A stretch of 64,000 nucleotides of DNA from Oceanispirochaeta sp. (GCA_963663385.2 CAXXXD010000003.1:736001-800000); one strand, 5' to 3'. Shown: positions 2,704 to 24,243, counted from the first letter of the stretch. A program made the numbers and translations. The notes: generated from the sequence alone by a model not told the origin.

Positions 2704-2731
2704 GTTATACAACAAGAATCAAGGATCACAT

Positions 2732-4057
2732 ATGATATCTTCGGAATTCAAGAATAATTTTCTCAAAAGGATTACTAGAATTGATTCAATAAATGTTACA
2801 GCTACACAATGTATTGAAAAAGATCCTAATACGATAAATGGAACAGCAACTATCTTTTTTGAGAATGAAATTTTAAAAATAGTTTTTTATCCAACAAATG
2901 ATGAATTAGATTTTTTCTACCCTCCATATGAAATTGGAGCAATAATAAAAAAAGAATATTATTATAAAATTACTTTCAGCGACAAAAATGGAAAATTATG
3001 GGAAACAGATCGATTTCTGCCAAAAAGAACAATTTCTTTACCAAAAAATGAAGTTATTTGGAATTGTTCTATTAGATCGATAAAAACAATATTCTCAATG
3101 CAGGATGTGGGTGCTGCAAAAAAGTTAAATTATTTGACTATATCAGTTAAAAATAATTTAGAAATTCCAATTAATGACTACTATTGTCAAAAATGTTTAA
3201 CCGATAATTTTACATTTACAGATAATAATGTTGGAATTTGGCATATAAGGGAAGAAAATGAAAATTTCAAAATAATGAATTTAAATGGAAGCACAATAAT
3301 TAAGTTCGAAACAAATGATTTATTTCCTCAAAAGACAATAGCATCTTTACTTGGTACTATATCCTTTATGTGGGGAGAAAAAATTGAATATGAATATATT
3401 GAATATCTATATGATGATAAAAAAAGTATAGAATTATTTAATTCTCCAAATGCTGATAATAATAAGCTCAATACACCACTTGTAATGAAAACTCATGAGC
3501 ATAAAGATAATTATGACAAACTTTTTTATAAGTATTTCAAATTTATTGATAATGAAGCGAATAAGTTGATATATATACAAAATCAAATTATTGCTTCTAA
3601 TAAAACAATATTGGAAGTTTATTCATTAGTACTTTCAACTTGTATCGAAAATTTGATTAAAAATCGGTTTGATATGAAAGATAAAAAGACTATCACTGAA
3701 GTTGATTCAATAATAACATTAGTCAGAAAAAAGAATATTGAGGAAAAAATAAAAAATAGAATTTTAGGATCTTTAAATTCAATACGTAAATCACCCAAAA
3801 GAGCAAAAGACATTCTAAATGAATTATTGAACAACGGAGTCATTACAAAAGAGCAAAAAAAATCATGGGACAAACTTAGAAACTCTACAGCACATGGTTC
3901 ATATGATTTTGAGGTTTCAGATCTCTTAAAATTAACCAATGATGTATTAACACTTTATTATTTGATAATCTTTGAAATTATTGGATATAAGGGAGAATAT
4001 GTAAATTACTCAAAAAAGAATTTCCCTGTAGAATTAAATTATGCAAATGATGAATAA
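2732..4057 (+). CDS. HEPN-domain protein (ApeA-like architecture), cassette gene
   Basis: C-terminal RNSTAH (RxxxxH) motif. Start moved to ATG 2732 after AAGGA because the ORF-track start lies inside the IS end. Confidence 0.65.
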   Translation: MISSEFKNNFLKRITRIDSINVTATQCIEKDPNTINGTATIFFENEILKIVFYPTNDELDFFYPPYEIGAIIKKEYYYKITFSDKNGKLWETDRFLPKRTISLPKNEVIWNCSIRSIKTIFSMQDVGAAKKLNYLTISVKNNLEIPINDYYCQKCLTDNFTFTDNNVGIWHIREENENFKIMNLNGSTIIKFETNDLFPQKTIASLLGTISFMWGEKIEYEYIEYLYDDKKSIELFNSPNADNNKLNTPLVMKTHEHKDNYDKLFYKYFKFIDNEANKLIYIQNQIIASNKTILEVYSLVLSTCIENLIKNRFDMKDKKTITEVDSIITLVRKKNIEEKIKNRILGSLNSIRKSPKRAKDILNELLNNGVITKEQKKSWDKLRNSTAHGSYDFEVSDLLKLTNDVLTLYYLIIFEIIGYKGEYVNYSKKNFPVELNYANDE

Positions 4058-4063
4058 ATTGTT

Positions 4064-4160
4064 GTATAACAAAGCCTTGCAACTGTCATGGCAAACTGTC
4101 ACAGAAAATGCGTGGCATTTTCTGCGCCAATTCACCATGCAGCTGAAGGCGACGTTATAT
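4064..4160 (+). other. attC site (97 bp)
   Basis: GTATAAC...GTTATAT; paired arms GCCTTGCAACTG/CAGCTGAAGGC, CATGG/CCATG, CAGAAAATGC/GCATTTTCTG; 6 bp after a stop codon. Confidence 0.9.
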
Positions 4161-4396
4161 CGAACACATTTTGTACTTCTGGTTCTTTCATAATTGCCAG
4201 ATGATTTAGTAGGTTTTAGGGTTTTGATACGGGTTGATTGATGCTCACACTACACTGATTATCAATCTTTGATGTGAGCAACGGTGCTAGAGTTCCTACA
4301 TTCAGCGGCGAAAAAGTTCCGCTTTTACTGACATAAAAAGGGGCAAATATCCTAAAGTAGAGATTACCACACCTACTACAAAAGGAACCTGCCCCT

Positions 4397-5680
4397 ATGT
4401 GTCAAAAGGAAGATCGCATGCATGTAGCACGCATCATGGCCAACGAAGGCCATACTCAAAAGTATATCGCTGAGTATCTTGGTGTCAGCGACCGGATGGT
4501 AAGGAAATACCTGAATCCGGACTTCAGAACCCGTCCCAGGAAATCCCGGGAAAGCATCCTTAAACCATTCTACCCCATAATAGAAGATACCTTGGAAAAT
4601 GATCCATACTTCAACCTCGTTTATCTTCATGAGAGACTACAAAACTCCGGTTATTCTGGAAAAATGACAATCCTACGTGACTATGCCCGGAAGTACAGGA
4701 AGAAACTGATTGAGAAAGCAGTAATCCGCTTTGAAACAGAGCCGGGAAGACAGGCCCAAGTTGACTGGAAAGAATGCGGAAAAATGGAGATTGATGGCAA
4801 ACTTCAGAAAGTATATGCATTTGTCATGCTGCTGGGATATAGTAGGATCCCGTTTGTCCTTTTCTCCTTGGATATGACCTCGCCGACATTGCTCCAAGCC
4901 CATCTGATGGCATTCCGGTTCTTCGGTGCTGTTCCGAAGGAAATTCTTTACGACAACATGAGAACAGCCTGGTACAACAACGGCGGTGTCTGGCACGTGA
5001 ACTCAAAGCTCCTGGCCTTTGCTTCAGCCTGTGGTTTCACTCCTCTTCGCTGCCAAGTTCGTAGACCGCAAACTAAGGGAAAGGTAGAGCGTTTTATCGG
5101 TTACCTGGGCCACAACTTCTTGATCCGTGAAGAAGCAATGAAGAGCCGCTCAATAAACGATTTAAACCTGACTGTCTCCAAATGGATCAAAACAGTAGTG
5201 GAACAGCAGATGAGCCAATTTAAACAGACTCGAAAAGAGAGATTTGAGTACGAAAGGCAGTTTATGAACCCTTGGAACCCTGAGGCAGCTCCAGATGTAA
5301 GGCTGGTTAAAGAACTGCTTGTCTCCAGAGAAGGGTTTATTCGTTTTGAATCAAACAAGTACAGCATTCCCGCGGACTTCATAGGACAAGTTGCGACACT
5401 GAAAGTAGATACGCTGGCAAGAACTGCCGCTATCTTCATTGATGGGGCCCCTGTTAGAACCTTCAAGCTTCTGACAAAAGGTGCGAAATTAGAATCTATC
5501 CGAAAGATTGATACCGACTCACTGGTTAAACGCTGGAAGAAAGAGAATCGCATGACAAAAAGGAATGTCGTTGCCAGTGTCCCGGAAATAAAGAATACTC
5601 CCAGGTCATCATTGATGCATACAGAGGTTGATACACGCCATCCTGAAAGCTACGACAAGCTTATGGGGGTAACAGCATGA
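4397..5680 (+). CDS. istA: IS21 transposase IstA
   Basis: N-terminal HTH; RFETEPGRQAQVDW, YDNM, PQTKGKVER motifs. Confidence 0.95.
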   Translation: MCQKEDRMHVARIMANEGHTQKYIAEYLGVSDRMVRKYLNPDFRTRPRKSRESILKPFYPIIEDTLENDPYFNLVYLHERLQNSGYSGKMTILRDYARKYRKKLIEKAVIRFETEPGRQAQVDWKECGKMEIDGKLQKVYAFVMLLGYSRIPFVLFSLDMTSPTLLQAHLMAFRFFGAVPKEILYDNMRTAWYNNGGVWHVNSKLLAFASACGFTPLRCQVRRPQTKGKVERFIGYLGHNFLIREEAMKSRSINDLNLTVSKWIKTVVEQQMSQFKQTRKERFEYERQFMNPWNPEAAPDVRLVKELLVSREGFIRFESNKYSIPADFIGQVATLKVDTLARTAAIFIDGAPVRTFKLLTKGAKLESIRKIDTDSLVKRWKKENRMTKRNVVASVPEIKNTPRSSLMHTEVDTRHPESYDKLMGVTA

Positions 5681-6441
5681 ATGTACTGCAGGAGACCATA
5701 GAGATCAGGATGAACGACTTAGGGCTGGAGTTTATGGCGGCGGGGTTGGAGAGCTTCCTTGAAGCTCAATCTCACACAGAAAACACTCTCTCTCAGTCAA
5801 TTGCAGACCTATTGGAACTGGAGTACGTTCCCCGTAAGGAGAGAGCTGCAAAAAGCCGTCTGAAGCTCTCTGGAATGCCATCGATCAAGCTATTAGAGGA
5901 CTTCGACCTATCCTGGTTGAAGGGAGGATTGACCGCTGCTCAACTGGCAGAGTTTTCTAGTCTGGCTTTCATTGAAAGAAAGGAAAATCTAGTACTGATG
6001 GGGCCAAGTGGATTGGGTAAAACCCATTTGATGCTAGCTCTGGCTCATAAAGCCTGTCAGAATGGTTATACTGTATGGTATACAAGCTGCATCGATCTGA
6101 TGGAGAATCTGACCCATGCCCGGGAGCAGGGGCGGTTGAAGCGACGGCTTACCTGGCTTAGAAAGCCTCATCTCATCCTTATCGATGAAGTTGGCTACGA
6201 GAACCTGACGAAAGAACAGGCCAACTTGTTTTTTCAGATTGTAAACACCCGCTATGAACAAGGCAGTATGATCATCACCACAAACAAGTCTTTCGGTCGT
6301 TGGGCTGAGATTCTGGATGATGAAGCCATTGCGACAGCGACTATAGACAGGCTCCTTCACCATGCACATGTCCTGAGTCTTAAAGGGGATTCATACCGGA
6401 TGAAAGACCGGTTGAAAATAGGGATCGTTGATCCTGTTTAA
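5677..6441 (+). CDS. istB: IS21 helper ATPase IstB
   Basis: GPSGLGKTHL Walker A, LIDEVGY, IITTN, DRLLHH; overlaps istA stop. Confidence 0.95.
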   Translation: MNVLQETIEIRMNDLGLEFMAAGLESFLEAQSHTENTLSQSIADLLELEYVPRKERAAKSRLKLSGMPSIKLLEDFDLSWLKGGLTAAQLAEFSSLAFIERKENLVLMGPSGLGKTHLMLALAHKACQNGYTVWYTSCIDLMENLTHAREQGRLKRRLTWLRKPHLILIDEVGYENLTKEQANLFFQIVNTRYEQGSMIITTNKSFGRWAEILDDEAIATATIDRLLHHAHVLSLKGDSYRMKDRLKIGIVDPV

Positions 6442-6617
6442 TTTTACCCAGAAGCGGAACTTTTAAACCGTTGAAATGAGGAACTTTTTCACCGCTGTTG
6501 ACAATCTTTGACGCCGGTTGCGGCTGGCAGAAGTGGAAATAAGGGCATTCGCCTTCACCTACGTTTATTAAGATATTCTTGCCTGATATGGCATCGGTGA
6601 TTTACAAAATGCTGTAG

Positions 6618-6792
6618 ACATAACAAGAAAATGATACTGTCGTCGCTACAGATCACATTTCTTGCAGAGATACAGTATGCTGATAAATAGTTCTTTCTTA
6701 AAAACAAATTACTGTTTAAAATAAGTCTGCAAGAAAAGCGCCTGTACCTGTCCTTCGGCCAGGCCGCTCCGCAGCATATTTTGGCGTTATAC
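6618..6792 (+). other. attC site, unusually long (175 bp)
   Basis: ACATAAC...GTTATAC; arms AAAATGATACTG/CAGCATATTTT and TTTCTTGCAGA/TCTGCAAGAAA. Confidence 0.75.
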
Positions 6793-6811
6793 CGATACAG
6801 GGAGTTAAAAA

Positions 6812-8320
6812 ATGAAGATCTTACTTGATACAAATATTCTAATACATCGAGAATCAAATCGAGTCATAAATCAAGATATAGGTCTTCTTTTTTATTGGCT
6901 TGATAAAATGGGTTATGAAAAATGGATACACCCAGATTCAATAAATGAAATTGAAAATTACCAAGATCGTATTGTTGTTGAAACCATACGAGCTAAAATA
7001 CAAAATTATAGATTATTAAATACGTTATCCGAAGACAATGTTGATATTCAAAGAATAAGAAAAGAATTTGATAATAACAGAAATGATGAAATAGATACTA
7101 ACCTTTTAAAAGAAGTCCATAATCAGAGAATAGAATATTTCATTACAGAAGATAGAAAAATACATAAGAAAGCAAAAAGTTTAAATATTCATGATAAAGT
7201 TTTCACAATAGATTCTATTATCGAAAAATTAACCTTTGAAAATCCAGATCTAATCGAGTATCCAATCCCATCAATTAAGAAAATTTACTTTGGGAATATC
7301 GATGTAAATCAATCTTTCTTCGATTCATTTCGGGAGGATTATCCAGGATTTAACGAATGGTTCAATAAAAAATCGGAGAATGAAGCATATATTTCAGAAG
7401 TGAGTAATCATATTGTTGCCTTTTTGTATATCAAAATTGAAGACGAAAGAGAAAATTATAAAAATATAACTCCAAATTTCGCACCTCATAGAAGGTTGAA
7501 AATTGGAACTTTTAAGGTTATTTCTAATGGATATAAAATAGGTGAGCGATTCCTAAAAATAATCTTCGATAATGCTGTAATAAACAAAGTTGATGAAATA
7601 TATGTTACAATATTCTCAAATAGCTTAGAGAAAAAAATGTTGATAAATCTTCTATGCGATTGGTGTTTTACAGAATTTGGAAAAAAACATAATGCTTATG
7701 GAAATGAATTAGTTTTTATACGTAAGATATCTTCATTTGAAAATGGATATTGTAAAAATATTTTTCCAAAGATACCCTTAAATACAGATAAGTATATTGT
7801 CCCTATATATCCTGCATATCATACAAATCTTTTCCCTGATTCAATATTAAATAATGAAAGCCCAATAGATTTTATCGAGAATGAACCATTTAGAAATGCG
7901 ATACAAAAAGTTTATATCTCACGATCGATAAATAGAGAATTTAAAGAAAATGACCTTATTGTTTTTTATAGAACAGGTGGTTTCTATAAAAGTGTTATTA
8001 CTACAATAGGTATTGTGCATTCTGTTATTGACGATATTAGTTCGGAAAGAGACTTTTTAAGTCTTTGTAGAAAACGATCAGTGTTTACTGATAAAGAATT
8101 ATCAGAACATTGGAACTATAATCGAGGGAATAGACCTTTTATAGTAAATTTTCTATATTCATATTCTTTCCCTAAACGGATAAATATGGAAAAATTAATA
8201 AATTTAGGTATAATACCGGATAGATTCTCAGCTCCCAGAGGGTTTGAGCCATTATCAGACTCAAAATTTGACACAATACTTAAGGAGACCAATTCTGATG
8301 AACGTTATTTTATCCATTAA
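6812..8320 (+). CDS. PIN + GNAT + ASCH/EVE-like multidomain protein, cassette gene
   Basis: PIN motifs LLDTNILI and FITEDRKI; GNAT-like LKIGTFKV...GYKIGERFL; C-terminal IVPIYPAYH...LIVFYR segment resembling PUA-like folds. Confidence 0.7.
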   Translation: MKILLDTNILIHRESNRVINQDIGLLFYWLDKMGYEKWIHPDSINEIENYQDRIVVETIRAKIQNYRLLNTLSEDNVDIQRIRKEFDNNRNDEIDTNLLKEVHNQRIEYFITEDRKIHKKAKSLNIHDKVFTIDSIIEKLTFENPDLIEYPIPSIKKIYFGNIDVNQSFFDSFREDYPGFNEWFNKKSENEAYISEVSNHIVAFLYIKIEDERENYKNITPNFAPHRRLKIGTFKVISNGYKIGERFLKIIFDNAVINKVDEIYVTIFSNSLEKKMLINLLCDWCFTEFGKKHNAYGNELVFIRKISSFENGYCKNIFPKIPLNTDKYIVPIYPAYHTNLFPDSILNNESPIDFIENEPFRNAIQKVYISRSINREFKENDLIVFYRTGGFYKSVITTIGIVHSVIDDISSERDFLSLCRKRSVFTDKELSEHWNYNRGNRPFIVNFLYSYSFPKRINMEKLINLGIIPDRFSAPRGFEPLSDSKFDTILKETNSDERYFIH

Positions 8321-8693
8321 ACCAAAGTATGTTGATAAAATATTCAAAGGTGAGAAAACATTTGAATATAGAAAAAGTATATTTAAAAGAAATGACATAG
8401 AGAAAGTCATAATATATTCTTCATCTCCAGTAATGAAAGTTGTAGGTGAATTCAAGATTAAAGATATTTATTGTGCCAATCCTGATGAGATATGGGAGAA
8501 TACAAAATTAGAATCTGGAATTGATGAAACTTTCTTTAGGAAATATTTTGACGGGAAGGATAAAGCATTTGCAATAAAAATAAACAACCTAAAACAATAT
8601 AAAGATGAATATGATTTATTTAAAAGCTTTGGAATAAAACCACCTCAATCATTTGCATATGTAGACAACGGTATAACAAAGCTATGCAACTGA
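8298..8693 (+). CDS. ASCH-domain protein
   Basis: LSIKPKYVDKIFKGEKTFEYRK (GxKxxExR) and PPQSF; AAGGAG RBS before ATG 8298; stop codon falls inside attC. Confidence 0.85.
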   Translation: MNVILSIKPKYVDKIFKGEKTFEYRKSIFKRNDIEKVIIYSSSPVMKVVGEFKIKDIYCANPDEIWENTKLESGIDETFFRKYFDGKDKAFAIKINNLKQYKDEYDLFKSFGIKPPQSFAYVDNGITKLCN

Positions 8694-8805
8694 CCCAATT
8701 TTTGTCACGATTTTTGCCTTCGGCCGTTACGGAACTAATCGTTCCTACACTCAAAAATCACGCCAACCCTTCGGGACAATTGGGCAGCTGATAGCGATGT
8801 TATAC
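8671..8805 (+). other. attC site (135 bp)
   Basis: GTATAAC...GTTATAC; arms GCTATGCAACTG/CAGCTGATAGC, CCCAATT/AATTGGG, GATTTTTG/CAAAAATC. Confidence 0.9.
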
Positions 8806-8846
8806 GGAAAAAGATATACAAATGAATAGTATCGGAGATAATTCCA

Positions 8847-8875
8847 TTGTCTGAAATTATTGAGACTGTTAGAAT
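8847..8875 (+). promoter_or_regulatory. Putative sigma70 promoter inside the RM cassette (leaderless mRNA)
   Basis: TTGTCT-17-TAGAAT; ATG 6 nt downstream; no RBS. Confidence 0.5.
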
Positions 8876-8881
8876 ACAAAA

Positions 8882-10255
8882 ATGATGAATAATAATACGA
8901 AATATCGAATCGTTAGCCTTTTTAGTGGGTGCGGTGGCTTAGATATTCCTTTTTCAGAAGATAAATATGAATTTGCAGGAGCATATGATAATGATCCTGC
9001 TGCTATTAAATGTTTAAATCATAATCTACGATGCAATGCTAAAGTTCTAGATGTTTTAAGTGAGGACTTTACTCCAGAAATGAAGGCTGTTGGTTCCGCT
9101 GATATTGTACTTGGAGGATTTCCGTGTCAAGGTTTTTCAAAATCAGGTCCTAAAAAAGAGAATGATCCACGAAATAAATTATATAAGTCGATGCTAAATG
9201 CAGTTGATATTTTACAACCAAAAATATTCATTGCAGAAAATGTCGATGGCTTAGTTCAGAATTTCAAGGGATCTTTTGTAGAGCAAATAATAACAGATTT
9301 TAATGAAATCGGATATGATGTCGAGCATAGAATCCTAAATGCAGTAAATTATGGTGTTTCACAATATAGAAGAAGAATATTCTTTGTTGGTAAAAAAAAG
9401 GAATCAAATTCTAAATTTGATTGGCCTGAACCCAAACATGAAGGAAAAAGTAGGAATGGAGAATTCAAAACAAAATGGGATGTATTTGATCGCGATTCGT
9501 TGTTTTTTCAACATGAGATTCTACCTAGCAAAACAATAAAAGATAGTATTGAGGATTTATTAGATATAAAATCCAATATTCCTGATCATATACATTTACC
9601 AATTTCAGAGAAAGATGTTGAGATAATGAAAAATATTGGAGAAGGTAAGAAGTTATGCAATGTAAGATTTTCTAATACATCTGTATATACTTGGAACATA
9701 CCAAAAGTATTTGGAGAGATTTCTGAAAAAGAAAAAGCTATTTTGGAAATAATAGGTAAAAATCGCAGAAAAAAAATATATGGAAATATACCAAATGGTA
9801 ATCCATTATCGATTGAAGTTATTAAGGAATTATCTGGATTTGATATTTTACCAAATGAACTCAATTCTCTTATCGATAAAGGATATTTAAAATTAAAAAA
9901 TAATAAATATGACTTAAAAGGTGCAATGTTTGCTTCTGGAATATATAAAAGACCTAATTGGAATGAACCTTCACCAACTGTTCTTACTGTATTTGATAAT
10001 CCAAGGTTCTTTTTCCATCCATTAAAAAATAGACCATTCACAATCAGAGAAGCCGCTAGATTACAGTCTTTTCCTGATAGTTTTGAGTTTATTAATTCAG
10101 GTATTTCTATAAAGGATGCTTATAGATTAATTGGAAATGCTGTTCCTCCTTTACTTGCTTCTCATTTAGAAAAAGCTATTTTTAACTACTTAAATAAAGA
10201 AGGTTTTAATGAAACTAGAACTGAAAACATTAACATTAACAGAAAAGCTCAATGA
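8882..10255 (+). CDS. C5-cytosine DNA methyltransferase
   Basis: LFSGCGG, GFPCQGFS, ENV, QYRRR, REAARLQSFP, GNAVPP motifs. Confidence 0.95.
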   Translation: MMNNNTKYRIVSLFSGCGGLDIPFSEDKYEFAGAYDNDPAAIKCLNHNLRCNAKVLDVLSEDFTPEMKAVGSADIVLGGFPCQGFSKSGPKKENDPRNKLYKSMLNAVDILQPKIFIAENVDGLVQNFKGSFVEQIITDFNEIGYDVEHRILNAVNYGVSQYRRRIFFVGKKKESNSKFDWPEPKHEGKSRNGEFKTKWDVFDRDSLFFQHEILPSKTIKDSIEDLLDIKSNIPDHIHLPISEKDVEIMKNIGEGKKLCNVRFSNTSVYTWNIPKVFGEISEKEKAILEIIGKNRRKKIYGNIPNGNPLSIEVIKELSGFDILPNELNSLIDKGYLKLKNNKYDLKGAMFASGIYKRPNWNEPSPTVLTVFDNPRFFFHPLKNRPFTIREAARLQSFPDSFEFINSGISIKDAYRLIGNAVPPLLASHLEKAIFNYLNKEGFNETRTENININRKAQ

Positions 10256-11699
10256 ATTTGATTTTTGGATAACTTCCAGATTATCAGAAATTAAAGACTC
10301 AGAAAAATTTAAATCAGAGATTAATCAAATCATTAATGCCATAGAGGTTTTGGGAACTCGAACTTCTAATTTTGATAATATCGAGGATGTATCTCCTAAG
10401 AAAATATCAGAATCTATTATTTATCATGTAAAGGGTAAGACTGGAACAGAACAAGAAGTAGCAATCCTTGGACTAATCAGCTTTATTTTTATGGTTACCG
10501 GGAAATCAGATAATAACTGTAAATGTCAGTTTCCAGTATATTTGCACAAGCAATTAAATAAGGATTCTATTCCAAAGATAAACTCGAATTCCACAATCGA
10601 AAATATTCCTATTCCTAGAACTATAAATGATTCGAGAGTCGCAAAAATTGTTGCCTCATTAGATAAATCACCTTTAGAACAATATGATTTTTTGTCTTCA
10701 TATATTCATTTTCTACTGGAAGAAAAATCATACATAGATTCTTTGTGGTCATTAGGTAGAACATATTTCCAATTAAAAGAAATTGGCTACCAAGAAGCAT
10801 TTTTATTACCACTTGTTGTTTATAGAGTCAGGGGTTCTGTAAGTGCATCTGGAGGTCATGAACCTGAAGAAATATTACGGGATCGAATGATAGAATGGGG
10901 ATTAGTAAGAGAAACAGATTTTAATACTAATGATGTGATTGTTGGAGAAGTAGATAAAAAATCTAAAACAAGGGCTTATGATTTTGTCTTACCCTATAAG
11001 ATTGATAGTTGGAGCCAAAAAATATTTATTCAAAGTCAGTTTTATGCAGGTGATAGTGGAAGTGTAAGTCATAAAAATGTTGATCAAATAAGTACTTCAA
11101 GATCTCATGTCAAATCAAAAATTTCAGAACCTATCTTTTTGGAATATGTTGATGGTGCCGGATATTATAGCTCCTTAAATGGAGATTTAAAGAAAATTCT
11201 TGCTATGGATGATACAGAAGATTTTTTCCAAGTAAAGACATCAGTTGTAAAATTAAGATTCTACCTTCAAGAGATTGGTTTTATAACTCCCATGGAGATT
11301 TTTCATGGTATTCTACTTGGTAATAATCATGAAGAAAAATGTAAAAAATTCCTAGAATCGCAGGGTTATAGTGAATCTGAAATTGAAAGAAGCATTAGCA
11401 ATGCTATTTCTAGACATCTTATATCATATGATAATTCAATTCTATCAATTGCATCTGATAATATTAGGATTGCTAAAAAGTATTTCTTATTAGATGTTAT
11501 AGTAAATCATTCTAATGAAAAAAGTAAAAGAGATAAAGGATGTTTTTTTATACCAGGTAAAGGTAATCAGATGGGAATTTCTTTTACGGATCTAGGAAAG
11601 GCAATTCAGAACTATTCCTCAGATATATGGAAAGATCCCTCTGCTTTACTTGAAGATATTCAATTCCTAATAGATAAAGGGTTTGTGAGCTCTACATAG
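10209..11699 (+). CDS. Putative type II restriction endonuclease
   Basis: Overlaps the MTase in the same cassette; GHEPE...YDF...IQSQF...EYVDGAGY resembles a PD-(D/E)XK variant. Confidence 0.65.
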   Translation: MKLELKTLTLTEKLNEFDFWITSRLSEIKDSEKFKSEINQIINAIEVLGTRTSNFDNIEDVSPKKISESIIYHVKGKTGTEQEVAILGLISFIFMVTGKSDNNCKCQFPVYLHKQLNKDSIPKINSNSTIENIPIPRTINDSRVAKIVASLDKSPLEQYDFLSSYIHFLLEEKSYIDSLWSLGRTYFQLKEIGYQEAFLLPLVVYRVRGSVSASGGHEPEEILRDRMIEWGLVRETDFNTNDVIVGEVDKKSKTRAYDFVLPYKIDSWSQKIFIQSQFYAGDSGSVSHKNVDQISTSRSHVKSKISEPIFLEYVDGAGYYSSLNGDLKKILAMDDTEDFFQVKTSVVKLRFYLQEIGFITPMEIFHGILLGNNHEEKCKKFLESQGYSESEIERSISNAISRHLISYDNSILSIASDNIRIAKKYFLLDVIVNHSNEKSKRDKGCFFIPGKGNQMGISFTDLGKAIQNYSSDIWKDPSALLEDIQFLIDKGFVSST

Positions 11700-13522: not shown

Positions 13523-13561
13523 ACGGGGAATTCTATCAAAGTTTCTATAATTATAAAATCT

Positions 13562-14459: not shown

Positions 14460-16022
14460 TCAGATTGCAATATCTTCAGCAGTTAAGTTATAGGGAAGTA
14501 ATTTTTCATAATCACTCTGTTTTTCACAGCAGGGCAATTCCCGGAAGATAAAGTACAAGTAAGCATAAACTGGAAGATTGTTCATCTTCGCAGATTCAAC
14601 GAGACTGTACAGAATTGCCGATGATTCAGCACCTTTCGGGCTTCCGGCAAAAAGCCAGTTTTTTCTCCCGATTACGAAGGGTCTGATTGCATTTTCAGCG
14701 CTATTGTTCGAAGGAGTCAAAACAGGATTTTTCAGATATAGAACCAACTGCTCCCAGTTGCTCAATGTATACTTCATCGCCTTACCGAACTCTAAAGAAG
14801 GAGGTACTTGAGGATAAAGCTTCGTCAGTTTTTTCTGTAACTTATCTAGTATCGGTTCTGCTCTATTTTGTCGCTGTTTATGAAACCCTTTTAGCGAATA
14901 ATTATCCCGTAATGATTCCAGTTCAAACAGATCCTTTATCAGGTCGAGAATTTGCTTTGCTTCTGCATCTTTTTTCTTGGTTGATTCCCAATATTGGAAG
15001 AACTTTCTTCTGGCATGGGCCCAGCATAAGACATGCTTTATATCTCCATCAACTTTTTTTCGGGCAGTATGGTAGGCCTCAAAATCATCAGTTTGAACCC
15101 AGCCAGAGTAATTTTCCAAGAAATCCAACGGAATTGCATGGGATCGGCCTTGCTCATACTGAAATATGACACATTTTTTATCGGGATCTCCTCTGAGAAA
15201 GACCCACATCCATGATTTATCTGAAGCTTTTCGTTTCGGTTCCTTTAGAACCTGAACTCTCGTCTCATCGGCATTAATAATGGAACCGGATTTAATGTTT
15301 TCTTTCAGCAAATCATATAGAGGCTTACATGCCGTTGCCGATTTTATCGTAAGATTGCTCAATGTCGCCCGGGGGATCGGTATGCCTATCTGGTTTAACC
15401 GTTTTGATTGCCTGTAGAAAGGAAGAGCGAACTCAAACTTTTCGCTTATACTCCAAGCGAGCAGGCTTTCATCGGCAATACTGCCCGCGACCAGATGCTT
15501 TGCTCCTTCTGCGGTCTGTACAGCAGCTTCATCAAGAGTCGTCCCTTCACAATTCTTGCAGGAGTACTTTTTTCTACGTTCCTGAATAACAACGACTTTT
15601 GACGGAATAATTTTTGCTCTCTCGGAAACATCTTCACCGATACAGGTCTTTTCTGTTCCGCAGGCACAGATCTTATCTTTATCCGGAATATCATATTCCA
15701 CGATCTCTCTCGGCAGATCTGCCGGCAGAGGTTTCCGGCCGGATTTTTTAATATTTTTCTTGTAGGAACCGACCTCAACCGTTTCAATAACATTTTTCTC
15801 CTGCTCTTCATCATTCTGAGCAAAAGCACTATCTTCCGCTTCATTGAAGAGAGAAGCTTGTTTCTTATCTTCGGCAGTTATCTTCTCTGATTTTGTTCCA
15901 AAGTGCAGGAGGTTCAGTTTTGCTACTTGCTCCTGGAGAATGGCATTAAGTCTTTTCAGTTCAGCAATTTCTATTTTTTGTGCATCAAGTTGTTCTCTTA
16001 AATGCTGTTCTTCATTCTCCAT
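14460..16022 (-). CDS. tnpC: IS66 transposase TnpC
   Basis: Identical translation to 11960-13522. Confidence 0.95.
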   Translation of the reverse strand: MENEEQHLREQLDAQKIEIAELKRLNAILQEQVAKLNLLHFGTKSEKITAEDKKQASLFNEAEDSAFAQNDEEQEKNVIETVEVGSYKKNIKKSGRKPLPADLPREIVEYDIPDKDKICACGTEKTCIGEDVSERAKIIPSKVVVIQERRKKYSCKNCEGTTLDEAAVQTAEGAKHLVAGSIADESLLAWSISEKFEFALPFYRQSKRLNQIGIPIPRATLSNLTIKSATACKPLYDLLKENIKSGSIINADETRVQVLKEPKRKASDKSWMWVFLRGDPDKKCVIFQYEQGRSHAIPLDFLENYSGWVQTDDFEAYHTARKKVDGDIKHVLCWAHARRKFFQYWESTKKKDAEAKQILDLIKDLFELESLRDNYSLKGFHKQRQNRAEPILDKLQKKLTKLYPQVPPSLEFGKAMKYTLSNWEQLVLYLKNPVLTPSNNSAENAIRPFVIGRKNWLFAGSPKGAESSAILYSLVESAKMNNLPVYAYLYFIFRELPCCEKQSDYEKLLPYNLTAEDIAI

Positions 16023-16061
16023 ACGGGGAATTCTATCAAAGTTTCTATAATTATAAAATCT

Positions 16062-16406
16062 CTAAATACGGGAATATGATAATTTTTTATGCGCTTTGAA
16101 AAAGTCTATTCCCGTCAGGAGCATTTTCAATTCATCCATGCTGATCTCTTTAGCATCTTCATCTGTTTCCGGCCAGGGATATCTGTTCTCTTCCAGTCTC
16201 TTCTGCCAGAGACAAAAACCGGTATTATCCCAGTAGACAATTTTCAGAAGTTTTCTCTGCCGGTTACAAAAGAGGAATAGCGATTTGGCGAATAAATCAT
16301 GATTCATTTCATTCTGGATAAACAGAGATAATCCGTTGATCGCTTTTCTTAAGTCTGTCGTGCCGGGTCTCAGAAAGATCCGGTATTCGTTCAGGTCAAC
16401 AAACAT
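16062..16406 (-). CDS. tnpB: IS66 accessory protein TnpB
   Basis: Identical translation to 13562-13906. Confidence 0.95.
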   Translation of the reverse strand: MFVDLNEYRIFLRPGTTDLRKAINGLSLFIQNEMNHDLFAKSLFLFCNRQRKLLKIVYWDNTGFCLWQKRLEENRYPWPETDEDAKEISMDELKMLLTGIDFFKAHKKLSYSRI

Positions 16407-16702
16407 TACAACTCTCTCAGAATCTTCAGAAGATCTATCAGGGATTGCCTGTTATAACCTGATGCCAGATCCAATGAGAAATCCTTGTATCTGAGTATCA
16501 TTGTGGGGTTTTGTGGCTGTAATACCGGGGCTTTCTGTTTGATTTCAATAAAACTGCTTTTCTTTAATTTTTTTCGATTCTTGTAGAAAGATGTATAGTG
16601 AACTCCTTTATCTGCGCAGAACTCAGAAATTGTTTTCCCGCTCTGTTTTTGTTCTTCGATTAATTCAGGCCAATTCCAGTTGGTCATATTAGGTTCCTCC
16701 AT
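16406..16702 (-). CDS. tnpA: IS66 accessory protein TnpA
   Basis: Identical translation to 13906-14202. Confidence 0.85.
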   Translation of the reverse strand: MEEPNMTNWNWPELIEEQKQSGKTISEFCADKGVHYTSFYKNRKKLKKSSFIEIKQKAPVLQPQNPTMILRYKDFSLDLASGYNRQSLIDLLKILREL

Positions 16703-16764
16703 GATTTTTCATGGAGTATATAATCATTTCGAAATCACGCAAGATGGAGAGAATTACCGCTTAC

Positions 16765-19211: not shown

Positions 19212-19306
19212 GTATCAAAGCCTTGCAACTGTCATGGCAAACTGTCACAGAAAATGCTTGGCATTTTCTGCGCCAATTCACCATGCAGCTGAAGGCGATG
19301 TTGAGA
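19212..19306 (+). other. attC site with damaged inverse core; near-copy of attC 4064-4160
   Basis: 19216-19302 matches 4070-4156 at 85 of 87 positions; GTATAAC reduced to GTATC. Confidence 0.85.
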
Positions 19307-19335
19307 CTTCGGAAAAATTATTAAGAAAAGGATTG

Positions 19336-19367
19336 TTGATAGTATCATATGATACTATTATTAGTAT
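19336..19367 (+). promoter_or_regulatory. Putative promoter with 20-bp perfect palindromic operator upstream of fic
   Basis: ATAGTATCATATGATACTAT at 19339-19358 overlapping TTGATA; ATG follows with no RBS. Confidence 0.6.
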
Positions 19368-20333
19368 ATGAAACCACCGTATGATATAACTAAAACGATA
19401 TTGGATTTATATGGGCAAATAACAGAAGCATTAGGAATATGCCAGAGTTTAATGCTTGTAAAACCAGAAGCTCGTTTACGCCGGCAAAATCGTATTAAAA
19501 CAATACAATCATCTCTAGCGATCGAAGGTAATACATTAAATATTGAGAACGTAACAGCATTACTTGATAATCAAAGAATTATTGGACCTGAAAAAGATAT
19601 TATTGAAGTACAAAATGCCATAAAGGCATATGAGAGCCTGATCACATTAAAGCCTCACAATAAAAAAGATTTCCTTTTAGCGCATAAAATACTAATGAAT
19701 GATTTAGTGAAAACACCTGGAGAATATAGAAAATCCCAGGTTGGAATAATGAAGGGAAAAGAAGTAGCACATATTGCTCCCACATCAGATATGGTTCCTG
19801 GTCTTATGAATGATTTGTTCAAATACTTGAAAGAAGATTCCGACTTAGAAATTATTAAAAGTTGCGTCTTTCATTATGAGGTGGAGTTCATCCATCCATT
19901 TGAAGATGGTAATGGAAGAATGGGAAGATATTGGCAAACACGAATACTAATGAATGTAAACCCAATCTTTGAGTTTGTACCCATTGAGAAACTTATAAAA
20001 GATAATCAAAAAGAATATTACCATGCCTTAGCACTATCAGAGAATACAGGCAAATCAACCGTATTTATCGAGTTTATGTTGAATGTCATAAATGAAGCAT
20101 TAAGAGATACAATTAATAAATCAAAGCCAACAAGTCCTGATTTTCATAAACGTTCAGAGATAGCTCTCTCTCAGCTGGATGGTTGGTTTGATAGAAAAGA
20201 GTACATGCAAGTCTGTAAAGGAATCTCAAGTGCTACAGCGAGCAGAGATTTAAAGCAATTACTTGATGAAAACAGAATTGAATCTTCCGGAAAGGGGAGA
20301 ATGACAAAATATAGAAATAAAAGGGATGGATAA
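19368..20333 (+). CDS. Fic-family protein with C-terminal wHTH
   Basis: HPFEDGNGRMGR catalytic loop; SSLAIEGN inhibitory motif; ISSATASRDL HTH. Confidence 0.92.
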   Translation: MKPPYDITKTILDLYGQITEALGICQSLMLVKPEARLRRQNRIKTIQSSLAIEGNTLNIENVTALLDNQRIIGPEKDIIEVQNAIKAYESLITLKPHNKKDFLLAHKILMNDLVKTPGEYRKSQVGIMKGKEVAHIAPTSDMVPGLMNDLFKYLKEDSDLEIIKSCVFHYEVEFIHPFEDGNGRMGRYWQTRILMNVNPIFEFVPIEKLIKDNQKEYYHALALSENTGKSTVFIEFMLNVINEALRDTINKSKPTSPDFHKRSEIALSQLDGWFDRKEYMQVCKGISSATASRDLKQLLDENRIESSGKGRMTKYRNKRDG

Positions 20334-20347
20334 CAAAAACTTGCAGC
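20328..20347 (+). other. Left part of an attC site, cut by intron insertion
   Basis: GGATAACAAAAACTTGCAGC parallels GTATAACAAAGCCTTGCAAC; overlaps the fic stop codon. Confidence 0.65.
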
Positions 20348-20995
20348 GTGTGCCACGAGAAGGCACCTTAATCTAAAAGATGGAGGTATTTTCATAACTG
20401 TAATATTGATGAGGGAAGGACCCTCGGGATCGGTTTTCAGGAACAGGTTTCAAACCACCGCAAGCTGCATTGGTAAAGAGCCTTTGTGGTGAACGTTGTC
20501 GGAAAAAGCAGGAATTAGAACCTGTCAGGTGAGTCTTTGGAAGGTGAACAAAAGTGAACCGTCGATGAGGTCTTTGACACAATTGATCATGAGTTATTGC
20601 TTAAAGCAGTGCGGTTTCATAATCCTCCTGCCTGGGTAGTTCTCTATATCGCTAGATGGTTAAAGGCCTCTGCAGAAGATTCGAATGGAGTTGTGATTAA
20701 GCGAGAGCAGGGGACACCACAGGGCGGAGTTATCAGCCCATTGTTGGCGAATCTGTTTATACACTATGCCTTTGATGAATGGATGACGAGGACTTATCCA
20801 CATGTTGAGTTTGCTCGATATGCGGATGACGTTGTAATTCATTGTCGGAGAAGAAGTGAAGCAGAGTCATTGCTCTCGGGAGTTAAAAATCGTTTAAGTG
20901 ACTGCAAATTATCGGTGCATCCTGAGAAGACAAAAATTGTGTTTTGTAAAGACGACAATCGCAAAGGTGATTACGAATATACGGAATTTGACTTC
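20348..20995 (+). mobile_element. Degenerate group II intron, class D-like (5' domain I plus RT fragment)
   Basis: Starts GTGTG; structured domain I-like sequence with candidate EBS1 GCTGCA and EBS2 GTTTT; RT fragment follows; no domain V/VI seen. Confidence 0.75.
20573..20995 (+). pseudogene. Group II intron reverse transcriptase internal fragment
   Basis: FDTIDH, GTPQGGVISPLLANLF, RYADD, HPEKTKIV, ends at EFDF. Confidence 0.9.
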
Positions 20996-21053
20996 CAGCT
21001 TTACGGTCTGCTGCTGAAAACGGTGTTCTAAAGACAAAGGTAAAATACATTGA

Positions 21054-21656
21054 ATGAAACATAATGATTTCCTTTCAAAAACATTAAGGCAATACTGTCA
21101 CATCTCTGATAATGAAATCGATCTAATCAGGCCTAAAATTATAAAAAGGAATATCAATAGAAATGATCATTTTCTAAATCAGGGTGATAATATAAATCGT
21201 ATTTGTTTGATAAGGGAAGGTTTGTTCCGGGTATATTGTAATGATTTGTCAGGAGATGAAAAGACTTTGGCCTTTAGAAGTCAAGGTCAGTTTCTTGCCG
21301 GTTATTCCCCATTTATAGAAAACAAAGAAATTTGGTATTCGATAGAAGCTCTTGAGGATAGTGTAATCCTCGCAATGAGGTTTGAAGACTATCTGGACTT
21401 GGAGAGAAATTCGAATAGCTGGAATGAATTAATCAAAAACTACATGACTAGATTGTTTATTGAGAAGGAAGAAAGGGAACGTTCTTTTCTTCTTGATGAT
21501 GCCACAACCCGATATCTGGAATTTGTAAGGAAAAATCCGGATTTCGAGGAAAGAATTCCGCAGTTTATCATCGCATCATATCTTGGAATAACACCGGTTT
21601 CATTAAGTAGGATCAGGTCAAAGCTAAAAAAAAATAAATCAGATCAATTATCCTAG
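21054..21656 (+). CDS. Crp/Fnr-family transcriptional regulator
   Basis: cNMP-binding fold; IPQFIIASYLGITPVSLSRIR HTH. Confidence 0.92.
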   Translation: MKHNDFLSKTLRQYCHISDNEIDLIRPKIIKRNINRNDHFLNQGDNINRICLIREGLFRVYCNDLSGDEKTLAFRSQGQFLAGYSPFIENKEIWYSIEALEDSVILAMRFEDYLDLERNSNSWNELIKNYMTRLFIEKEERERSFLLDDATTRYLEFVRKNPDFEERIPQFIIASYLGITPVSLSRIRSKLKKNKSDQLS

Positions 21657-21663
21657 GATAATT
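21646..21663. promoter_or_regulatory. Palindromic operator, probably for the adjacent Crp/Fnr regulator
   Basis: Perfect 18-bp palindrome AATTATCCTAGGATAATT between the regulator and the epimerase. Confidence 0.55.
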
Positions 21664-21718
21664 ACAGAAGTTTATTTCGATTGTATTGTTTTTTTTAAAT
21701 CTATATTGGGAGAACAAT

Positions 21719-22714
21719 ATGTCAAAAGCTTTTGTAACAGGAGCGGCAGGCTTCCTGGGAAACAATGTTATCAGGGAATTGCTTGATCAAGGTTGGGATG
21801 TTACGGCATTTCACTTGCCTTCAGACAATTTGAAATACTTATCTGGTTTGAATATTAAGTTTGCAGAAGGTGACATTCTTGATTATCAGTCTTTACTTGA
21901 TTCAATCCCTCAGGATGAGAATGTAATTGTCTTTCATATTGCCGGAGACACAAGCATGTGGGACAGACATAATGAGCGACAATACATGATCAACGTAAAA
22001 GGAACGGCTAATGTCGCCAAGGCGGCTCTGGATAGAGGCGTGAAAAAATTTGTTTTTACGTCTTCTATATCTGCCTATGGATATCATTCAGAAAGGATCG
22101 ATGAAGAAACACCATCGAATGCCCTGACATGTAAAATGAATTACAACAAGACCAAATATCTGGCAGAGCTGGAAGTCCATAAGGTTATTGAAAAAGGTTT
22201 AAATGCTGTCATTCTCAATCCCTGTAATATGATGGGGCCCTTTGATATAAAAGGATGGTCTACGCTTATTAAGAGTGTACTTAATAACGATGTTCCCGCT
22301 GTTTCCCTTGGTGTTGGAACTTTCGCTCATGTCCGCGATGTAGCAAAGGCTCATATTAAAGCTGCAGAAGTCGGGAAAAAAGGGGAAAACTATTTAATAG
22401 GCGGCGTTGAAATAGTATTCAGAGACATTTACCGGGAAATTAATGAAATACTGGGTAAAGATATGAATCTGAGAACTGTTTCCAGTCCAGTTTTTCGAAT
22501 GGCTATGTATTTAATAAGATTGAAAGCCTTTTTGAAAAGGGAAGAACCTATTTTGACATATCCGAGATATAAAAGACTGACTGGCAGAATTATCTGCAAT
22601 GATGAAAAAGCCAGGAAGGAACTGTCATTTCAGACTTCCAGTATGAAAGAGATGTTAAGTGATTCCTATGCATGGCTACAGCAGGAAGGTCTTACCATAA
22701 AGGAAAATTCATGA
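21719..22714 (+). CDS. NAD-dependent epimerase/dehydratase (dihydroflavonol-reductase-like SDR)
   Basis: TGAAGFLG, FTSS, YNKTK motifs; GGGAG RBS before ATG 21719. Confidence 0.9.
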   Translation: MSKAFVTGAAGFLGNNVIRELLDQGWDVTAFHLPSDNLKYLSGLNIKFAEGDILDYQSLLDSIPQDENVIVFHIAGDTSMWDRHNERQYMINVKGTANVAKAALDRGVKKFVFTSSISAYGYHSERIDEETPSNALTCKMNYNKTKYLAELEVHKVIEKGLNAVILNPCNMMGPFDIKGWSTLIKSVLNNDVPAVSLGVGTFAHVRDVAKAHIKAAEVGKKGENYLIGGVEIVFRDIYREINEILGKDMNLRTVSSPVFRMAMYLIRLKAFLKREEPILTYPRYKRLTGRIICNDEKARKELSFQTSSMKEMLSDSYAWLQQEGLTIKENS

Positions 22715-23406
22715 AATCCAGGACAGCCTTTGTAGAAGTAAGTGATGAACCCCTTCATCAGGAAGTATATAGAAATGATCATGTTCGTGTTTATCGTGCT
22801 ATATTGAAGCCTGGTTATTCTACCGATTTTCATAGACATTCAAAAAATACTTTATATGTTACCATTCGGGGAGGTAACATAATGACAAGGACAATGAAAG
22901 GAACCCATGCTTGTCCTACTGTTCTATCAAAGAGGGTTTCTTTGATTAAGCGTATTTGTTTATTGTTTCAAAAAATTTTTTCCAATTCCCTGAATCTCTT
23001 CAACGGTTTTGTATTTTACATGGCAAGTGAAAGGAATCCTGTAATTCACAAGGCAACAGCCTCAAGTAAAAACGGTTTCAATATGGATTTAATGGGAATT
23101 GAAGTCCTGTATTCAAATCAAATGAAATACAGAGTTAAGAATATCTATGGTAAGATTGAGATTGAATCAGATGAAATAATGGCCTGTCGAATCACTTTGA
23201 ATTCTCATCAAAAATTATCAGGTGAAAATTTACATAGAGACGGACTCATTATTGTTTTATCAGGAAAATTAGGTATAAAAGTAAATCAGGAATATTCTTA
23301 TCTGAAAGCAGGAGAACTTTATTCTACTGGCGATGAATCTATTCAAGAAACAGAGAATCAGGGACTTAAACAGATGGAAATTCTATATATTGTTTTCAAA
23401 AAATAG
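22711..23406 (+). CDS. Cupin-fold hypothetical protein
   Basis: LKPGYSTDFHRH cupin motif; ATGA overlap with upstream gene. Confidence 0.6.
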   Translation: MKSRTAFVEVSDEPLHQEVYRNDHVRVYRAILKPGYSTDFHRHSKNTLYVTIRGGNIMTRTMKGTHACPTVLSKRVSLIKRICLLFQKIFSNSLNLFNGFVFYMASERNPVIHKATASSKNGFNMDLMGIEVLYSNQMKYRVKNIYGKIEIESDEIMACRITLNSHQKLSGENLHRDGLIIVLSGKLGIKVNQEYSYLKAGELYSTGDESIQETENQGLKQMEILYIVFKK

Positions 23407-23417
23407 ACTAATAAAAA

Positions 23418-23451
23418 TGAAAATACCCAGTTTGAGTTTTTCTACAGTCTC
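23418..23451 (+). mobile_element. Isolated IS1182 right-end remnant
   Basis: 34 bp identical to 2670-2703, again followed by GTTAT. Confidence 0.85.
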
Positions 23452-23469
23452 GTTATGAATAATTCAGGA

Positions 23470-23498
23470 TTGATGGCTAAGTCTAAATGTGGTACAAT
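23470..23498 (+). promoter_or_regulatory. Putative sigma70 promoter of the TA cassette
   Basis: TTGATG-17-TACAAT with extended TG; GGAGG RBS downstream. Confidence 0.6.
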
Positions 23499-23520
23499 AT
23501 ATGCACTTGGAGGTTGATAA

Positions 23521-23808
23521 ATGAATTTAAAAGACGATATAAAGCCAATTTCATATATAAAGACAAATGCTGCTGATATGCTTAAACGCGTGAATGAAAC
23601 ACACAATCCAATAGTTATTACTCAAAACGGAGAAGCAAAAGCAGTATTGTTAGACACTGAATCATATCAGGATATGCGTAATAGTTTAGGAATTTTAAAG
23701 ATTCTTGCAGAAGGTGAGAAAGCTGCAGAAGATGGACAAGTATATACTCAAGATGAAGTTTTCGACTACATGGAAGAAAAATTAAGAAAATTAAAAGAAA
23801 AAGAATAG
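23521..23808 (+). CDS. Phd/YefM-family antitoxin
   Basis: IKPISYIK, PIVITQNGEAKAVL motifs. Confidence 0.92.
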   Translation: MNLKDDIKPISYIKTNAADMLKRVNETHNPIVITQNGEAKAVLLDTESYQDMRNSLGILKILAEGEKAAEDGQVYTQDEVFDYMEEKLRKLKEKE

Positions 23809-23809
23809 A

Positions 23810-24133
23810 ATGGATAAATTCAAAGTTATATGGACGAAACCTGCGTTAGATGATTTAGACGAGATAATTGGTTATATCGCAAAGGATTCAGTAGATATCG
23901 CACTAAAGCAATATGAAAGAATTAAGGATACATCTCTGGAGATTGGAAAATTCCCAAAACAAGGAAGAATAATACCAGAATTGCAGAATGAGAATATAAT
24001 AAAATTTAGAGAAATAGTTTTAACGCCATGGCGAATGATGTATCGAATTGAAGAGACGAGAATTCTGATATTAGCAATATTAGATGGCAGAAGAAATATT
24101 GAAGAAATAATGATGAAAAGACAGCTTAGGTAA
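23810..24133 (+). CDS. RelE/ParE-family toxin
   Basis: VIWTKPALDDLDEI, FPKQGRIIPEL, ILDGRR; directly after antitoxin. Confidence 0.92.
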   Translation: MDKFKVIWTKPALDDLDEIIGYIAKDSVDIALKQYERIKDTSLEIGKFPKQGRIIPELQNENIIKFREIVLTPWRMMYRIEETRILILAILDGRRNIEEIMMKRQLR

Positions 24134-24166
24134 TTGACTTTATAAAATTTTAAATAAGCTTCAAAT

Positions 24167-24243
24167 AACAGATTTTACCAGGAACATTTGAATAAACATT
24201 ATGCCATGCGGCTTAAATCTCCCAACTTTTAAAAGCAATGACG
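24167..24243 (+). mobile_element. Internally deleted IS1182 transposase relic
   Basis: Similar to 1047-1087 joined to 2133-2173 through a shared ATGCCAT. Confidence 0.7.

Follow-up and report, generated by a model that had tools for sequence, protein, structure and literature searches.

A probable integron cassette array stocked with candidate defence genes, and eroded by insertion sequences and group II introns, in a free-living spirochaete

Sedentary chromosomal integrons, and clusters of attC sites lacking an integrase (CALINs, a term defined for IntegronFinder, PMC4889954), hold one-way, promoterless-looking cassettes of foreign guanine-plus-cytosine (GC) content, include toxin-antitoxin (TA) cassettes, and have attC sites that fold on the bottom strand and resemble each other within an array. 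All of these features are shared by a block at about 2.7 to 24.2 kb of the stretch of Oceanispirochaeta sp. DNA analysed here (CAXXXD010000003.1:736001-800000; 64,000 nt, hereafter the window, with most results given in its plus-strand coordinates). The block differs from them in that no integrase is visible, introns split two of its attC sites, C and A/T take the place of G and T as bulged bases, and one attC measures 175 bp. In the accessible text of PMC7923331, where the term CALIN is also used, truncated introns and TA systems are reported from CALINs. Phage-defence cassettes are the subject of 'Mobile Integrons Encode Phage Defense Systems' (bioRxiv 10.1101/2024.07.02.601719), and the available part of PMC12614218 describes integrons as 'biobanks' with defence cassettes. 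Restriction-modification (RM), Fic, TA and candidate defence systems occur as cassettes in those integrons and in ours, whereas the present array belongs to an environmental spirochaete, has large multi-gene cassettes and holds candidate functions only. All of its components are thus of known kinds, and defence systems as integron cassettes have already been published. The attC sites of Spirochaetes have also been modelled (PMC8352920, in its accessible portion), and a 2013 study (PMC3607928), as far as its available text goes, stated that no spirochaete clade but Treponema had integrons.

Our results indicate that positions 2705-24154 of the window very probably represent a chromosomal integron's cassette array, its host being a free-living spirochaete; as far as the window shows, it is a CALIN. 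An initial annotation, made by a model from the bare sequence, had taken the block for an integron array, and that reading is now carried by the anatomy of the sites, by cassette starts that complement their own cassette's end, by a single gene direction, by foreign GC content and by a group II intron in the bottom strand of a recombination site. The host can be placed by its S1 ribosomal protein (46111-47280), whose named relatives, at no more than 76% identity, belong to Spirochaetales (Sediminispirochaetaceae, Oceanispirochaeta and Spirochaeta isovalerica); together with the large genome, this makes it a free-living spirochaete. The array adds a free-living spirochaete outside Treponema to the hosts that store anti-phage genes in integron arrays, a modest extension of the Treponema-only picture in PMC3607928.

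The structure of the sites, the complementarity of the junctions, the gene content and the junctions with insertion sequences (IS) and introns can be read directly in the window. Four attC sites are recognisable:

4064..4160, plus strand: attC 1, 97 bp; minus-strand fold z -6.3; model scores: minus strand 109.6 bits, plus strand 41.5 bits
6618..6792, plus strand: attC 2, 175 bp, long and divergent in sequence; fold z -3.4; L box with compensatory changes
8671..8805, plus strand: attC 3, 135 bp; fold z -4.9; model scores: minus strand 117.2 bits, plus strand 15.5 bits
19210..19306, plus strand: attC 4, 97 bp; fold z -6.0; R'' GTATC (AA missing), R' GTTGAGA

The three sites that the initial annotation had called intact (4064, 6618 and 8671) indeed carry R'' GTATAAC or ACATAAC and R' GTTATAT or GTTATAC, TAAC...GTTA boxes with paired arms, and minus-strand hairpins. 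The fourth, said to lie at 19212 with a damaged inverse core, is equally real: it is 97% identical to 4067-4156, has kept the GTT of R' and is without the AAC of R''. Since its R'' variant GTATC recurs in a sibling site on a metagenome contig (L004:923-1035), it is a lineage variant and not random damage. Bottom strands that do not fold into R/L-box hairpins had been named, together with a lack of attC covariance-model hits, as the outcome that would speak against an integron; the minus strands of all four sites form long hairpins, and none of 200 shuffles folds as well.

A consensus structure was drawn from five sequences, the four window sites and the sibling from L004. It begins with an 8-bp R box and an unpaired spacer of 2 nt on either side; stems of 5 bp and then 6 bp come next, each followed by one bulged base, and beyond the second bulge lies a variable stem-loop. 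Compensatory changes are seen in 18 of its 45 pairs. According to the accessible text of PMC5027507, the recombined bottom strand carries AAC in one arm, extrahelical bases in the opposite arm and a 6-bp stem separating the first of these from the last. All three properties are present on the minus strand in five of five sequences, with the bulges at alignment columns 174 and 167 in the 3' arm; the plus strand fails because there the bulges lie on the same arm as AAC. The minus strand is also the better one in constrained fold energy (-26.9, -25.3 and -25.1 against -18.6, -20.2 and -19.0 kcal/mol on the plus strand) and in covariance-model score (109, 107 and 92 against 41, 15.5 and 27 bits). 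Moreover, the arms recur as motifs more often than expected, with four matches against 0.20 for the 3' arm and three against 0.52 for the 5' arm. An 11-mer search allowing two mismatches gave 25 matches against 20.4 expected, and an ungapped comparison of the arms gave nothing because the bulges shift the register.

The cassettes also carry a signature at their ends. The starts of cassettes 1, 3 and 4 are exact reverse complements of their own ends, over 12 nt (2704-2715 and 4059-4070), 9 nt (6786-6794 and 8669-8677) and 9 nt (8800-8808 and 11703-11711; 10 nt if a C displaced by an intron is counted), just as the initial annotation had stated, and in all combinations of a junction with an R'' that is not its own only 1 to 7 nt match. 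Cassette 2 has 5 nt of exact complement within a 22-nt imperfect (77%) inverted repeat. Such complementarity between a cassette's start and its own end, across 1.4-2.9 kb, is the trace expected from a crossover at G/TT, and it is not predicted by terminators or by repetitive extragenic palindromic (REP) elements.

Further evidence comes from the attC of cassette 4, which had been read as interrupted at 11705 and is so: its R'' stub GTATAA (11706-11711) runs straight into a group II intron on the minus strand, at that intron's 3' end. It is one of only two introns, and the only two matches of any kind, that a scan with Rfam, which has no attC family, returned.

11712..14412, minus strand: group II intron, 3' relic (domains V-VI and maturase C terminus), split by IS66 copy 1; RF00029 at 11712-11781, 48 bits; maturase-like translations

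Its insertion point on the bottom strand reads G/TTATAC. A 48-residue maturase fragment shows 56-67% identity to plasmid intron maturases in a tblastn search, and one of these relatives is an ltrA gene of a class 1 integron, placed between catB3 and qacEdelta1 and oriented against the cassettes. According to the available text of PMC3001079, the attC bottom strand is where group IIC-attC introns are inserted, in an orientation opposed to that of the cassettes. The window intron resembles S.ma.I2 and its relatives treated there in its bottom-strand site, its orientation and its adjacency to R''; it differs in that only the 3' 340 nt and some 80 C-terminal maturase residues remain, split by IS66, and it is a putative member of the class.

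Several observations weigh against an integron array, and some of them would suit an ordinary defence island whose independently acquired operons are separated by imperfect palindromes (terminators, or repeats of the REP kind or resembling miniature inverted-repeat transposable elements), a reading that we hold to be very unlikely. Hairpin energy alone is not beyond chance, as in six of 10 local shuffles one or more TAAC...GTTA candidates reached -22 kcal/mol or below (best -26.3), and an energy scan fails to separate sites from shuffles. The R boxes fit RYYYAAC/GTTRRRY (PMC5027507, accessible text) at six of seven positions, the deviations being A for Y and T for R; as the first bulged base all five sequences have C, where G is usual, and as the last three have A and two have T, where the same source has a conserved T. 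At 175 bp, site 6618 exceeds the 57-141 bp range given in the available part of that source, into which the other three (97, 135 and 97 bp) fall. The cassettes are unusually large (1.4-2.9 kb) and several hold more than one gene; cassette 7 ends without a canonical attC, by folding and by model scan, cassette 8 is missing its own attC, and the start of cassette 6 (GTTGAGAC) is complementary to its own R'' over only 3 nt. In addition, the covariance models were built from the window sites themselves, for which reason two controls were run. In a leave-one-out run, a model built without site 6618 (R2) recovered it with filters off (6614-6803, minus strand, 30.9 bits, E 6e-7), the next non-seed match in 35 kb reaching only 10.2 bits (E 1.8), and missed it with default filters; the first model scored 73 bits on the never-used site L004:923-1035. 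A scan of genome contigs from 185,579 genomes with the 5'-arm motif returned 30 single-match loci, among which only L004 is a clear sibling site set. To the same side belong a 39-nt repeat that ends at recombination points, and an integrase that is nowhere in view, both of which are taken up below. Terminators or REP elements, for their part, leave unexplained the cassette-specific complement of 9-12 nt over 1.4-2.9 kb, the conserved AAC/GTT boxes, canonically spaced and with bulges 6 bp apart, the strong strand asymmetry, and an integron-type intron at the G/TT of a bottom-strand R''.

No Phage_integrase match was found among the 55 open reading frames (ORFs) scanned across the window, which has no intI and no recognisable attI. 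At least two attC sites with no integrase nearby, the definition of a CALIN, are what the window holds, and its left edge lies inside an IS66 copy. The initial annotation had offered either a CALIN or the distal part of a chromosomal integron, a pair of options that counts as overstated: with no integrase match among the 55 ORFs and a left edge inside IS66, the window does not narrow it. A sequence left of the first cassette bears on this choice:

2670..2708, plus strand: 39-nt sequence ending GTTAT, left of the cassette 1 junction; a second copy, 100% identical, at 23418-23456

It is possible, if the less favoured case, that intI, attI and the cassette promoter Pc lie just left of the window and that the 39-nt sequence is the right half of attI, which would make the locus a complete and possibly active sedentary chromosomal integron. 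All cassette genes run from left to right, so that a platform would be expected on the left; 2704 is a genuine recombination junction by its 12-nt complement, and no attC-like fold forms in the sequence left of it, as would hold for an attI; and the source contig, at 5.46 Mb, has further sequence upstream. A single attI, however, does not predict a second copy, and the exact 39 nt recur at 23418-23456 before cassette 8; moreover, at least two IS elements (IS66 and IS1182) stand between the window start and cassette 1. The repeat ends at the recombination point GTT before both cassettes 1 and 8, and its copies form no hairpin (z -0.2 and -0.5). Two origins may be considered, an atypical attC of which this would be the 3' part, with the first copy truncated by IS1182, or an attI-like sequence. 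A short attC of cassette 7 at 23404-23458 was considered and rejected, as its fold is no better than shuffles (z -0.5) and it has no model match. A related 10-mer, TTTTCTACAG, occurs at 926-935 beside an IS66 end.

Base composition and gene direction set the cassette array apart from its surroundings. The backbone has 47-49% GC against 26-35% in the block at about 2.7-24.2 kb, every non-IS gene of the block lies on the plus strand, and a promoter scan was at chance level (43 found, 40 expected). Host ABC transporter genes begin at 24386 and are followed by ordinary metabolic and regulatory genes to 64000. Same-orientation sequences of IS1182 type bracket the low-GC block, and host-type genes start right after the right-hand one:

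986..2530, plus strand: IS1182/IS5-type DDE transposase gene; Pfam DDE_Tnp_1_6, DUF772 and DDE_Tnp_1
24155..24243, plus strand: internally deleted relic of an IS1182-like transposase gene, at the right edge of the array; 91% and 86% matches

Delivery of the whole block as an IS-bounded composite element between these two might be read from this arrangement, and we consider it improbable. The relic is internally deleted and only 86-91% similar, the ends and target duplications of the IS are not definable, and the IS1182 element found no useful relative in a plasmid collection; in a search of that collection with the array there was no match. A composite element would in any case explain delivery and not the structure of the attC sites, and is compatible with a cassette array. 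The same relic disposes of a further attC that had been suspected at 24163: 24155-24243 matches two parts of an IS1182-family transposase gene (1035-1087 at 91% and 2133-2174 at 86%), and the ATAAC at that point therefore belongs to a decayed transposase gene.

The cassette array has suffered considerable damage, and IS sequence makes up about 8.9 kb of its 21.4 kb. In addition to the IS1182-type sequences, two IS families are present:

1..914, plus strand: 3' part of IS66 copy 3, cut by the window start; Pfam DDE_Tnp_IS66 1.6e-68; ends ...CCGCTTAC at 914
4273-6503: IS21, splitting cassette 2; istA 4397-5680 and istB 5677-6441; Pfam rve, Mu-transpos_C_2 and IstB_IS21
11913..14264, minus strand: IS66 copy 1 (tnpA/tnpB/tnpC), in the intron maturase region; 8-bp target duplication GCATAGCC
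14413..16764, minus strand: IS66 copy 2; no target duplication; left flank intron, right flank interior of the type IIG gene

IS21 has 52-nt terminal inverted repeats and an 8-bp target duplication, ATCTTTGA, at 4265-4272 and 6504-6511. Over 2352 bp no difference separates IS66 copies 1 and 2, and copy 3 differs from copy 1 at one internal position of 914; from the near-identity of three copies, all within 17 kb, it follows that the element was very recently active in this genome. Since copy 2 is without a target duplication and is flanked by intron on one side and by the interior of the type IIG gene on the other, it marks an IS66-mediated deletion or rearrangement, in which cassette 4 lost the rest of its attC, the intron its 5' part and cassette 5 its start.

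A second intron relic concerns the attC of cassette 6. The initial annotation had placed an interrupted site at 20328, where the stop codon of the Fic gene lies within GGATAAC and the next 13 nt, AAAAACTTGCAGC, follow the 5'-arm pattern of the family:

20328..20347, plus strand: attC 5' arm of cassette 6, GGATAACAAAAACTTGCAGC, 20 nt, consensus-like
20348..21007, plus strand: group II intron relic in cassette orientation (domains I-IV and a reverse transcriptase fragment); RF01999 at 20411-20530, 103.6 bits
21008..21031, plus strand: probable 3' arm and R' (GTTCTAA) of the cassette 6 attC; CTGCTGAAAACGGTGTT at 21011-21027, two mismatches to the 3'-arm motif

Within the 64 kb, CTGCTGAAAACGGTGTT is the sole additional match to the 3'-arm motif; it sits at the end of the relic and lies 27 nt 5' of the next gene. 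Judging by motif and position, 20328 and 21011-21031 are probably the two arms of one attC split by the intron, and cassette 7 would start at 21026. The site thus stands in part, as the 20-nt 5' arm resembles the consensus and a 3' arm is found at 21011-21027, against a model score of only 7.9 bits (E 9.6). The reverse transcriptase of this intron is without its N-terminal third and ends after motif 7, covering only positions 100-193 of the Pfam RVT_1 profile. The one published intron in the same orientation that we found, of group IIB, lies just after an attC (PMC7923331, accessible text), whereas the relic in the window lies inside one. The two relics were also considered as halves of a single intron split by an IS66 inversion; this was rejected, as their flanks do not fit one site and some 100 reverse transcriptase residues would be missing. 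With three IS families and two group II introns cutting recombination sites, the array illustrates how such a structure decays. Only cassettes 2 and 3 appear to be still bracketed by two intact attC sites, and therefore only these two would still be movable by excision, if IntI were supplied.

The chemistry and the order of events that we infer are as follows. According to the integron literature, the integrase would recombine the folded bottom (minus) strand of the attC hairpin at AA/C of the R box, and after insertion each cassette would begin with TTATAC..., which complements its own R''. The eight low-GC units of the array would mostly be conflict genes (HEPN, PDC-M11, a C5-methylase type II RM, a type IIG RM, SoFic and Phd-ParE), and Phd-ParE may also stabilise the array. 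In a later invasion, an intron of the group IIC-attC type would have entered the bottom strand of the cassette 4 attC, a second intron would have come to lie inside that of cassette 6, and IS21 would have split cassette 2. The recently active IS66 would then have entered the first intron, and its second copy would represent the deletion or rearrangement that removed the remainder of the cassette 4 attC together with the type IIG gene's 5' third.

The array counts eight cassettes of low GC content (26-35%):

2705..4154, plus strand: cassette 1; ORF 2732-4057, 441 residues; GC 0.264
4155..6786, plus strand: cassette 2; own sequence about 390 bp, interrupted by IS21
6787..8799, plus strand: cassette 3; PDC-M11A 6812-8320 and PDC-M11B/ASCH 8244-8693; Pfam ASCH
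8800..11711, plus strand: cassette 4; C5 DNA methylase 8882-10255 and an overlapping 496-residue ORF 10209-11699; ends in the R'' stub GTATAA
16765..19152, plus strand: cassette 5 fragment; type IIG restriction-methylase without about 260 N-terminal residues; Pfam Eco57I, N6_Mtase and TaqI_C
19301..20347, plus strand: cassette 6; Fic-domain protein 19368-20333; PADLOC SoFic 7.7e-47; Pfam Fic
21026..23452, plus strand: cassette 7 (putative); cNMP-binding regulator 21054-21656, SDR epimerase 21686-22714 and cupin-like ORF 22672-23406; ends in a copy of the 39-nt repeat
23453..24154, plus strand: cassette 8; Phd antitoxin 23521-23808 (PhdYeFM_antitox 1.2e-15) and ParE toxin 23810-24133 (ParE_toxin 5.2e-15)

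The defence functions given here are predicted ones. That the array is stocked with such genes, as the initial annotation had it, agrees with PADLOC matches for five of the 13 in-region proteins (PDC-M11A, PDC-M11B, a type II methyltransferase, the type IIG RM and SoFic), to which Pfam adds Phd/ParE. The further claim that the uncharacterised cassettes are strong candidates for new defence genes was overstated: only two proteins are truly uncharacterised, and it is plausible for the one at 2732-4057, while the one at 10209-11699 is most simply the nuclease partner of a methylase and the genes at 21054-23406 do not look defence-like.

The 441-residue protein of cassette 1 is the one testable HEPN defence candidate, and as such the most useful product of this analysis. 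Its structure model (pLDDT, the predicted local distance difference test score, 88.1) has a beta-rich N-terminal half and a helical, HEPN-like C-terminal half. It has no match in Pfam, NCBIfam, PADLOC or PHROGs and no word-index homologue, and a structure search found no solved structure that matches. HMMER returned 971 relatives at no more than 35% identity. Four residues, G69, E306, R383 and H388, are invariant in 40 aligned members, and R383-H388 forms the Rx4H motif RNSTAH. The language-model neighbours of the protein are ApeA-annotated clusters (0.98), and it resembles ApeA in its length of about 450 residues, its beta-rich N-terminal and helical C-terminal domains and its Rx4H motif. It differs in matching neither the Pfam models that define ApeA (ApeA_NTD1 and HEPN_Apea, no match even at E <= 10) nor the PADLOC ApeA model, and only two of the 40 family members touch HEPN_Apea. 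Consequently, we do not file it as ApeA; it is probably a HEPN abortive-infection RNase from an unannotated ApeA-like family.

Our results also lead us to speculate on a broader, twofold proposal, which taken jointly is rather doubtful. The 441-residue protein might found an unannotated single-gene family of abortive-infection RNases, with a beta-rich sensor and an Rx4H HEPN domain, that is trafficked by integrons, and the attC family of this spirochaete might be read by a divergent integrase with another specificity for extrahelical bases. The first part would accord with about 1000 relatives at no more than 35% identity that lie outside Pfam, NCBIfam and PADLOC 2.0; pointers to the second are a first bulged base that is always C and not G, and the R'' GTATC that is shared with an unrelated metagenome contig.

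PDC-M11, a candidate system of PADLOC, appeared in a literature search only as a name, and the array gives it a natural context, with adjacent genes for PDC-M11A (1.7e-203 over its full length) and PDC-M11B (2.1e-49). The methylase of cassette 4 matches Pfam DNA_methylase (5.9e-65) and PADLOC MTase_II. The overlapping 496-residue protein has 841 relatives, and the named ones among those listed are called 'hypothetical'; its model (pLDDT 86.7) gave no significant structural match, three restriction enzymes appearing at E 0.3-0.9. Its position makes it, most simply, the putative nuclease that goes with the neighbouring C5 methylase. The type IIG protein matches REase_MTase_IIG of PADLOC (1.6e-212), with residues 19-809 on profile positions 261-1063 of 1066, and might survive as an orphan methyltransferase rather than as a dead gene. 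The three-gene block of cassette 7 has no defence signature in Pfam or PADLOC. The truncated type IIG reading frame keeps the methylase and specificity domains and has an in-frame start within the IS66 end (ORF 16711-19152).

Among the loci from the scan of genome contigs, L004 (JANQEH010000129.1) is a 3981-bp metagenome contig with attC sites of the same family at 437-571 and 923-1035, about 490 bp apart, beside fragments of an IS110-family transposase; it has no integrase, and its 342-residue ORF is an O-methyltransferase. Two other loci scored weakly, L013, where the contig end cuts the site, at 14.2 bits and L016 at 20.5 bits, and most of the 30 resemble, by eye, coding sequence with a recurring reading of the YNKALQL type. 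Elsewhere in the window, a 137-nt TAAC...GTTA hairpin (52707-52843, -26.8 kcal/mol) lies within a gene for a 1531-residue protein with a PPDK_N domain; it has no attC model match at default filters and is probably due to chance.

A second low-GC island (29047-33900, 0.39 against 0.47-0.49) has no attC model match. It begins with a 417-residue ORF (29047-30300) that finds no match in Pfam, NCBIfam, PADLOC or PHROGs and whose language-model neighbours are Peptidase_U49 (Lit-like) clusters (0.94). This is followed by a 116-residue unknown ORF, an S-adenosylmethionine (SAM) methyltransferase with a weak PADLOC match to mad2 (1.1e-8), a GNAT fragment and a DinB/MDMPI-like protein.

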